IMG/VR virus record: IMGVR_UViG_2529292910_000010
Span: 1 to 41,736 of that record
Source of the DNA: a virus
Taxonomy: Duplodnaviria; Heunggongvirae; Uroviricota; Caudoviricetes
DNA length: 41,736 bases
Direction: 5' to 3' (one strand)
Under the pieces are notes generated by a model. That model saw nothing but the letters and a program-made list of their open reading frames with translations, was not told the DNA's origin and made no database searches. Each line of letters begins with the position of its first letter. The first letter of the stretch is position 1. Both the position numbers and the translations under genes were made by a program. Positions 23,696 through 24,742 of the stretch are shown here, piece by piece.

Positions 23696-24409
23696 TCAAT
23701 AATCAAGCCCTTGCCTGGATACATATCTGTCTGGCGGGAAGCCATAATAGCGGTGAAATACAGAAATAAAGTAGGACCTGCTTGAATAACCGCATTTTTC
23801 TGCTATAGCCTGTCCATATCCATGCCGGGAACATAACATATTTACAGCAACACGCATCCGCTCTTCCAGCAACAAGCGACTGAACATGCCCCCTTCATTT
23901 TTCAGTTTTGTCTTTAACAAACTCTCACTCATATGCAACTGTAGAGCAATCGCACCAAGCGTCCAGCTTGCTGATATATCTGTCTGAATTATCGCCCTGA
24001 CTTTGGCACTTATGCTGGATAAACATCCACTTAAAAACAATGACATCCGTTCATCTGTTTCAAACAGAGACAGGCAGGCCATCATAAGAAACATATCCGT
24101 GGCCTCTCCGGAAAATCCCTGGCTGGTAATTAAAGCCGCAGCCAACGCAGGATTGTTGGGTTCCAGCAACAGGTAAAGCGGAATGTCAGTCAGACGAGTC
24201 CTCGTCAGCTTATGCTGACTTTCCAGATATTGACTTACGACGGATTCGCTTATATCGACAATTTTAACTTTGCCATAATGCATAAGGAAAAGCTCCCTGA
24301 TGCATTTGGTGGCCAGAACAACTGAGCCTGGCTTAAGTGACAACGTATCCTTTTCAAGAAAAATATTAATTGGGGAGCAAACCATGATAACTGAACAGAC
24401 AACAGCCAT
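23696..24409 (-). CDS. AraC-family transcriptional regulator (prophage moron, AppY-like)
   Basis: 237 aa; C-terminal AraC HTH (...LQLHMSESLLKTKLKNEGGMFSRLLLEERMRVAVNML...KCGYSSRSYFISVFHRYYGFPP); AT-rich upstream region. Confidence 0.85.
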   Translation of the reverse strand: MAVVCSVIMVCSPINIFLEKDTLSLKPGSVVLATKCIRELFLMHYGKVKIVDISESVVSQYLESQHKLTRTRLTDIPLYLLLEPNNPALAAALITSQGFSGEATDMFLMMACLSLFETDERMSLFLSGCLSSISAKVRAIIQTDISASWTLGAIALQLHMSESLLKTKLKNEGGMFSRLLLEERMRVAVNMLCSRHGYGQAIAEKCGYSSRSYFISVFHRYYGFPPDRYVSRQGLDY

Positions 24410-24544
24410 TATAATTTTACTTTCATTAGCAATTGGTTAGCTCAATTATAGCCCCAAAAGGTAAATTATCATCAACACATAAGCAAAGGACTGACAGGTG
24501 TCGCCCCCCCCACCAGCCGCCCATTCACCACAAATAAAAAGCCT

Positions 24545-24742
24545 TCAGGACTGAAGGCGTCTGTAACAACCGCACTGATAGTCTGCCAGACCCGCCATAA
24601 CAAGCTGGGTCAGTATTAACTGGCAGCGTTCGCGTGAAAGGTAAGTATTCTGCGCAATCTCCCCGACTGTCGCCGGTTCGGTAACGCTTAATTCATCAAA
24701 CACAACTCTGGCGGTTTCTGTCATATCCTGCTGTTTCAGCAT
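24545..24742 (-). CDS. hypothetical small protein (possible HTH)
   Basis: 65-aa ORF with its own hairpin (gccttcag/ctgaaggc) plus U-run at the stop. Confidence 0.4.
   Translation of the reverse strand: MLKQQDMTETARVVFDELSVTEPATVGEIAQNTYLSRERCQLILTQLVMAGLADYQCGCYRRLQS

Follow-up and report, generated by a model that had tools for sequence, protein, structure and literature searches.

The window, by which we mean the whole stretch of 41,736 nucleotides that was analysed, holds a lambdoid prophage on the minus strand which is stx-negative and resembles prophage Sp11 of strain Sakai. Its features are collected in Table 1. The genes run in the order Q, ORF65, psr, ileZ-argN-argO, as they do in Sakai Sp4 and Sp11 and in phiSTEC1575-Stx2k, and downstream of the tRNA genes there follow the sialate esterase gene nanS-p, the lysis genes, and the head and tail genes. 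The three tRNA genes, which the initial annotation had named as neighbours of the regulator, lie directly downstream of psr and are annotated ileZ/argN/argO in Sakai; the tRNA-Ile2 (anticodon CAT) is labelled Met by ARAGORN.

Table 1. Features of the prophage with emphasis on the region between Q and the tRNA genes
Feature	Coordinates	Strand	Details
Terminator after last tRNA gene	23386-23403	-	-11.4 kcal/mol, z = -2.8
tRNA-Ile2 (anticodon CAT), tRNA-Arg(TCG), tRNA-Arg(TCT) (ileZ-argN-argO)	23418-23667	-	ARAGORN, Rfam
Promoter-like site for tRNAs	23678-23706	-	TTGATT-17-TATTAT; -35 overlaps psr stop codon
psr (psrB-type), 237-aa AraC/XylS regulator	23696-24409	-	ORF, Pfam, identities, primers
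Sigma-70-like promoter candidate for psr	24445-24472	-	ATGATA-16-TATAAT; consensus match 10/12
C8 tract (G8 on coding strand)	24504-24511		Just upstream of psr cassette
Intrinsic terminator after ORF65	24533-24558	-	7-bp stem, 4-nt loop, then TTTTTATTTG
ORF65, small winged-helix-like protein of late leader, 65 aa	24545-24742	-	Conservation, phrog_331, AF2
Weaker terminator-like hairpin in ORF65 leader	24812-24833	-	-7.4 kcal/mol, z = -1.5
GC hairpin and U-run upstream of ORF65	24867-24891	-	-12 kcal/mol, z = -3.2
Candidate Q-dependent late promoter region	24914-24960	-	TGTTAAGAG extended -10-like element; GCGGTCCGC palindrome
Q antiterminator ORF	26435-26812	-	Pfam Phage_antitermQ, 5e-52
cI	33735-34427		Replication and nin-region genes next
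Integrase	40426 onwards		

The Q ORF as called opens at TTG, and its homologues begin at an internal MRDIQMVL; the true Q protein is probably about 120 aa long. Its relationship to Q21, whose structure has been solved, is only a distant one (E = 0.002). Q is separated from the probable late promoter by an opposite-strand cassette of low G+C content (0.30-0.36), which comprises a DUF6731 gene (25024-25964, plus strand) and a gene for a 147-aa membrane protein (25968-26411), both very AT-rich and facing against Q. Elsewhere in E. coli the DUF6731 gene is 942 bp long (313 aa); in the window it has A7 instead of A8, a frameshift at approximately 25052-25058, about ten codons in, after which only a 237-aa ORF from 25251 remains open. 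Either the gene is a pseudogene or the homopolymer was misread in sequencing. PADLOC defence annotation gave no match for the DUF6731 cassette or for psr. Towards the left edge of the window the gene for the tail-tip protein J (1732-2550, minus strand) is cut down to a 272-aa fragment with the FNIII-A domain only, and beyond it stand non-phage-looking ORFs, including one at 385-1491 (plus strand); the prophage is therefore probably truncated at its tail-fibre/cargo end. Rfam matches to C4 antisense RNA (32285-32372) and to the Hfq-binding RNA isrK (32394-32470), both on the minus strand, adjoin an antirepressor-like gene with Rha/Ash domains (31685-32830), and the set looks like a P1/Gifsy-type antisense-controlled antirepressor module of the immunity region.

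The psr ORF codes for an AraC-type regulator of 237 aa, as initially annotated, and is intact. Its DNA is 100% identical to the gene for WP_000301785.1, which in many E. coli genomes is labelled merely "helix-turn-helix domain-containing protein". Both Pfam AraC models were passed over residues 155-230, HTH_AraC with 50.3 bits (cut-off 26.6) and HTH_18 with 39.8 bits (cut-off 33.6), and the protein carries, within its C-terminal ~100 residues, the two helix-turn-helix motifs by which AraC/XylS members are recognized. In comparisons with solved structures the DNA-binding domain of GadX (3mkl) was matched best, at E = 7e-19 with the single sequence and 1.4e-30 with a profile; the profile also found Rns (~1e-22) and ToxT, residues 53-269 of which aligned with Psr residues 25-232. 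The best NCBIfam models were those of YdeO (NF007407, 108.5 bits versus a cut-off of 348) and GadX (NF007432, 87 bits versus 500), both scores being far under the equivalog cut-offs. An AF2 model based upon 12 homologues was poor (pLDDT 62.8, pTM 0.40), and places seven helices after a beta-rich N-terminal domain.

The comparison with AppY-, GadX-, Psr- and PatE-type regulators, which had been suggested as a check, led to Psr. The protein is 98.7% identical to ECs_2191 of Sakai Sp11 and 90.7% identical to ECs_1087 of Sp4, while PatE is 37% identical across the whole length. A 2026 paper by the group which had defined this family gives ECs_1087 the name psrA (PMC13502914). Between the two Sakai copies the identity is 90.7%, in agreement with the 90% reported for PsrA and PsrB (PMC10877973, PMC8565820). 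Z2104 is the EDL933 locus tag of psrB, and primers published for it give a 158-bp amplicon (PMC4763077); they match the window with zero mismatches at 24149 and 23992, again delimiting 158 bp, versus one mismatch of the forward primer in the Sp4 allele. Based upon the Sakai identities and the primer match we refer to the gene as a psrB-type allele, and from the primer matches together with the 90% figure we infer that ECs_2191 is Z2104/PsrB. The search for psr copies in Sakai took in Sp4, Sp6, Sp9 (including its right end), Sp11 and Sp14. Locus-tag arithmetic had directed the search for PsrB to Sp6, Sp9 and Sp14, which contain no AraC gene; Sp11 has one. The gene is thus already characterized, its family having been described in 2011-2015 (PMC10877973), and nothing here is new in kind.

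The frame is open throughout, and pN/pS across alleles is 0.24-0.45; psr is intact and under purifying selection. Its G+C content of 0.44 compares with 0.51-0.58 in the neighbouring genes, and AUA and AGR codons are frequent, AUA accounting for 5 of the 15 Ile codons and AGR for 6 of the 13 Arg codons. The 1133-bp module of ORF65 plus the AraC gene was found, at a coverage of at least 80%, in 725 of 5426 complete E. coli genomes (~13%).

The long, 237-aa form of Psr is supported by homology, since PatE aligns from residue 1 and the YdeO model covers positions 1-230. There is no Shine-Dalgarno sequence before this start, and in the original Sakai annotation psrA starts 42 codons later (195 aa), after an AGGGAG-like motif. 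A mini-ORF of five codons (ATG AAA GTA AAA TTA TAA; 24407-24431, minus strand), also without a Shine-Dalgarno sequence, overlaps the psr start through UAAUG. The AT-rich DNA which had been noted upstream of the regulator is present to a moderate degree, with a G+C content of 0.40 (24250-24549) as compared with ~0.52-0.58 in neighbouring phage genes. It includes ATGATA-16-TATAAT, the best sigma-70-like match between 22900 and 26900, situated just upstream of psr. The number of sigma-70-like matches in this region is no higher than in shuffled sequences, so that the promoter call rests on its position and on the fact that the alleles of Sakai Sp4 and the Stx2k phage conserve it; the site would function as the psr promoter.

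The C9 tract which had been placed at approximately 24500-24512 is in fact C8. Situated within DNA common to methylase-type loci, which are considered below, it precedes the psr -35 element by some 30 bp. Strain 2018-166 shares the C8 tract with the window, and FORC_069 has C7; other matches of 99.9% are likewise one base shorter at the tract, which suggests that they carry the same C7 difference. In the Sakai Sp4 allele and in that of the Stx2k phage, GGGTGTTAGCGG stands in place of the tract. The difference between C7 and C8 may reflect slippage or a sequencing artefact. That a slippage-prone tract should tune the psr promoter between strains, and so act as a phase-variable switch on an acid-resistance regulator, we regard as highly improbable.

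Upstream of psr the initial annotation had described a 65-aa ORF with its own terminator, and this description holds. Directly after the ORF65 stop codon a hairpin (24558-24541; GCCTTCAGTCCTGAAGGC then TTTTT) has a folding energy of -10.5 kcal/mol (z = -2.9); its stem is kept across phages and its loop differs in phiP27 and Stx2k. The locus was compared with those of the Stx2a phage Stx2_EH2201, the Stx2e phage phiP27, the Stx2k phage phiSTEC1575, and Sakai Sp4, Sp9, Sp11 and Sp14. ORF65 is 94-100% identical in Stx2a_EH2201, phiP27 (L23), the Stx2k phage, and Sakai Sp9 and Sp11, with or without psr in the same phage, and its pN/pS is ~0.1-0.2; on these grounds it is a real gene. It matches phrog_331 (E = 6e-37), and prophages of Salmonella, Klebsiella, Citrobacter and Buttiauxella contain homologues 63-65 aa in length. 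The match to Pfam TrmB (PF01978; 17.8 bits, E = 0.003) falls under the cut-off of 25.6. In an AF2 model (pLDDT 81.6) the protein forms three helices resembling a winged-helix core, and the nearest solved folds are winged-helix domains that bind DNA, namely the N-domain of PcaR, PefI and IscR (TM 0.55-0.70, none with E < 0.5). As a best guess, ORF65 is most likely a small factor of the late leader that binds DNA.

Both genes had been placed outside the conserved late region. This is true of the AraC gene, in whose slot other phages have a methylase, but not of ORF65 with its 94-100% conservation. One could nevertheless envisage ORF65 and psr, which are neighbours on one strand and are both present in Sp4, Sp11 and the Stx2k phage, as a single two-gene unit of regulatory cargo. 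We give almost no credence to such a unit: in Stx2a_EH2201, phiP27 and Sp9 ORF65 stands without psr, beside a methylase gene; a terminator and a cassette breakpoint separate the two genes; and in Sp4 ORF65 is frameshifted while psrA is functional. The Sp4 frameshift (L004 18344-18583) is a 1-bp deletion after codon 49, and the adjacent psrA is the functional copy of the literature. ORF65 is a backbone gene of the Q-proximal late leader, separate from the cargo.

The late leader itself can be delimited by comparison. The region which would contain the late promoter is conserved with Stx2a_EH2201 as far as 24960; that phage has a Q protein 73% identical to the one in the window, with ORF65 only 215 bp away from Q. 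All six of the aligned loci have the hairpin at 24867-24891; substitutions in its loop and stem leave the pairing intact, and it is probably a tR'-like late terminator. The shared module begins at this hairpin, and the DNA upstream of it varies with Q type. The weaker hairpin in the ORF65 leader is indistinguishable from those of shuffled sequences. Two terminators, both well supported, thus stand between the late promoter candidate and psr: the tR'-like hairpin and the one that follows ORF65. An identification of the conserved leader upstream of ORF65 with the prophage sRNA HnrS, which was described recently, was considered and rejected, as in Sakai Sp9 the mazF-complementary HnrS sequence comes after Rz; no copy of it is present in the window.

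In Stx2_EH2201, phiP27 and Sp9 the interval from the ORF65 terminator to tRNA-Ile holds a DNA methylase gene of 1059 bp in place of psr. Homology of the window with these methylase-type loci ends at 23671 and resumes at 24509 (24473 with phiP27), and the breakpoints define a psr cassette of about 0.8 kb consisting of the promoter-like site and the gene. What stands between the ORF65 terminator and ileZ is therefore exchangeable, either psr or a DNA methylase gene, and ORF65 belongs to the backbone. Like a moron, the psr cassette is present or absent between homologous phages and has a composition unlike its flanks; of a promoter and terminator of its own, psr has a promoter-like site and no terminator before tRNA-Ile (z = 0.36 for the interval between them). 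The three tRNA genes do not require the psr promoter as a driver, since every cassette type has its own TTGxxx-17-TATTAT before ileZ: TTGCAx-17-TATTAT precedes ileZ in methylase-type loci and in Sp14, the latter without any cassette.

Between the tRNA genes and nanS-p, at the position which stx occupies in Stx phages, there is an Rfam match to the sRNA STnc100 (140 bits; 23152-23342, minus strand). In EDL933 a 154-nt sRNA, EvrS, acts through Z2269 to repress LEE, and it was mapped to the interval from psrA (z1789) to the esterase gene (PMC11774850), which is also the position of the STnc100 match.

Related regulators are found in other lambdoid phages. E. coli O139:H1 W13-16 (L011 2683-3534) has the same Q and DUF6731 cassette followed by a different AraC gene of 283 aa, 38% identical to Psr of the window, with tRNA-Gly and holin genes next to it. 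AraC genes 37-39% identical are present in lambda-like phages (the Lambda_ev series, mEp332, ev099). AraC regulators of the Psr subfamily thus recur as cargo in lambdoid phages. The psr module circulates in ~13% of complete E. coli genomes and in one Stx2k phage, and a psrB-type allele on a stx-negative, Sp11-like prophage is a data point on the spread of this module.

The function of Psr and PatE was taken from reviews and later papers (PMC10877973, PMC8565820, PMC4456613, PMC10057817). According to these, Psr proteins raise gadE, yhiF and hdeA and bind the gadE and hdeA promoters, and they increase acid resistance while repressing LEE type III secretion indirectly through GadE and YhiF. By analogy, the allele in the window would act as PsrA and PsrB do, upon host gadE, hdeA and LEE loci that lie outside the window. 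As judged from the PsrA/PsrB literature, psr would be transcribed in the lysogen from its own promoter; its product would bind AT-rich DNA of the gadE and hdeA promoters through the two C-terminal helix-turn-helix motifs and raise yhiF. The GAD acid-resistance regulon would be switched on in consequence and, where LEE is present, its type III secretion would be repressed via GadE and YhiF. Psr regulators are in this way one link from prophages to host regulation, turning on GAD acid resistance and modulating type III secretion.

From the position of psr one may also expect that during lytic growth Q-modified RNA polymerase from the late promoter reads through it. The gene could then serve mainly the lytic programme, being expressed in the Q-dependent late transcript only and acting on phage genes or on a dying host. 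Such a role would suit a gene of the late strand that follows the probable late promoter and terminator and precedes the tRNA, nanS-p and lysis genes, and the lack of a terminator between psr and the tRNA genes would suit it too. We consider it very unlikely, because psr is preceded by a promoter-like site of its own which other alleles conserve, and because psrA and psrB phenotypes have been reported in uninduced O157 lysogens and on cryptic prophages (PMC10877973, PMC8565820, PMC13502914).

It is very unlikely indeed that psr is a silent passenger, H-NS/Hha-silenced or redundant with YdeO, GadX, GadW and AppY and of no effect in this host. Such a state would fit the AT-rich psr DNA, the increase in psrA expression in Sakai when HnrS represses Hha (PMC13502914), and the little effect that a psrB deletion alone has on secretion in O157 (PMC10877973, PMC8565820). 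Against it are the intact frame and the pN/pS values, the retention of the module in 725 complete genomes, and the rise in acid survival upon PsrB induction (PMC10877973).

We therefore favour, with considerable confidence, a single combined reading: that the gene is a psrB-type allele of the Psr family, expressed from its own promoter with a Psr-like function, and that ORF65 is separate from it. The earlier proposal of lysogenic-conversion cargo applies to the regulator, on the strength of its identities to the Sakai psr genes, the Z2104 primers, the likeness to PatE and its place in a slot where other phages have a DNA methylase gene, but not to ORF65, a backbone gene. The evidence supports psr as cargo of the lysogenic-conversion type, of the Psr/PatE kind.

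Among known systems, the virulence regulators of the Rns/ToxT type can be aligned by profile over most of the length of Psr, but their similarity is distant only. The acid-resistance AraC regulators YdeO, GadX, GadW and AppY, chromosomal or on DLP12, share the Psr regulon according to the literature, and the YdeO model aligns over residues 1-229. PatE (Z0321; ECs_0287 of Sakai Sp1) is a prophage-borne AraC regulator of the same subfamily which aligns with Psr from end to end and is reported to activate gadE and hdeA (PMC10877973); it differs in having only 37% identity and is located elsewhere, in a different, degraded prophage.

In the O157 psr prophages, pch genes and effector loci have been reported on the same prophage. 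For pch genes the window, at whose left edge the tail end of the prophage is probably truncated, gave a weak PerC-like match only. At the position of pch in Sp11, between Rz and the terminase, the window has no pchB homologue. The PerC/Pch-like match (40% over 50 aa to Sakai PchB; 30200-30349, minus strand) falls in the nin region, within an ORF at 30158-30652.

The window protein is closely identical to the products of the O157 psr genes, and its gene occupies the slot between Q and ileZ-argN-argO of a lambdoid prophage in which members of the Psr family are found. With PsrA (ECs_1087; Z1789 in EDL933) it has in common the gene order, a conserved promoter region and the 5' leader, and it differs by 22 amino acids, while the Sp4 allele is without the G-tract and Sp4 ORF65 is frameshifted. 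The closest counterpart is PsrB (Z2104 of EDL933 OI-57, here equated with ECs_2191). Q of the window is of another type than that of Sp11, and is set apart from the late promoter by a DUF6731 cassette. The protein has the same length of 237 aa as PsrB, from which it differs by three amino acids, and its gene has the same place between ORF65 and ileZ.
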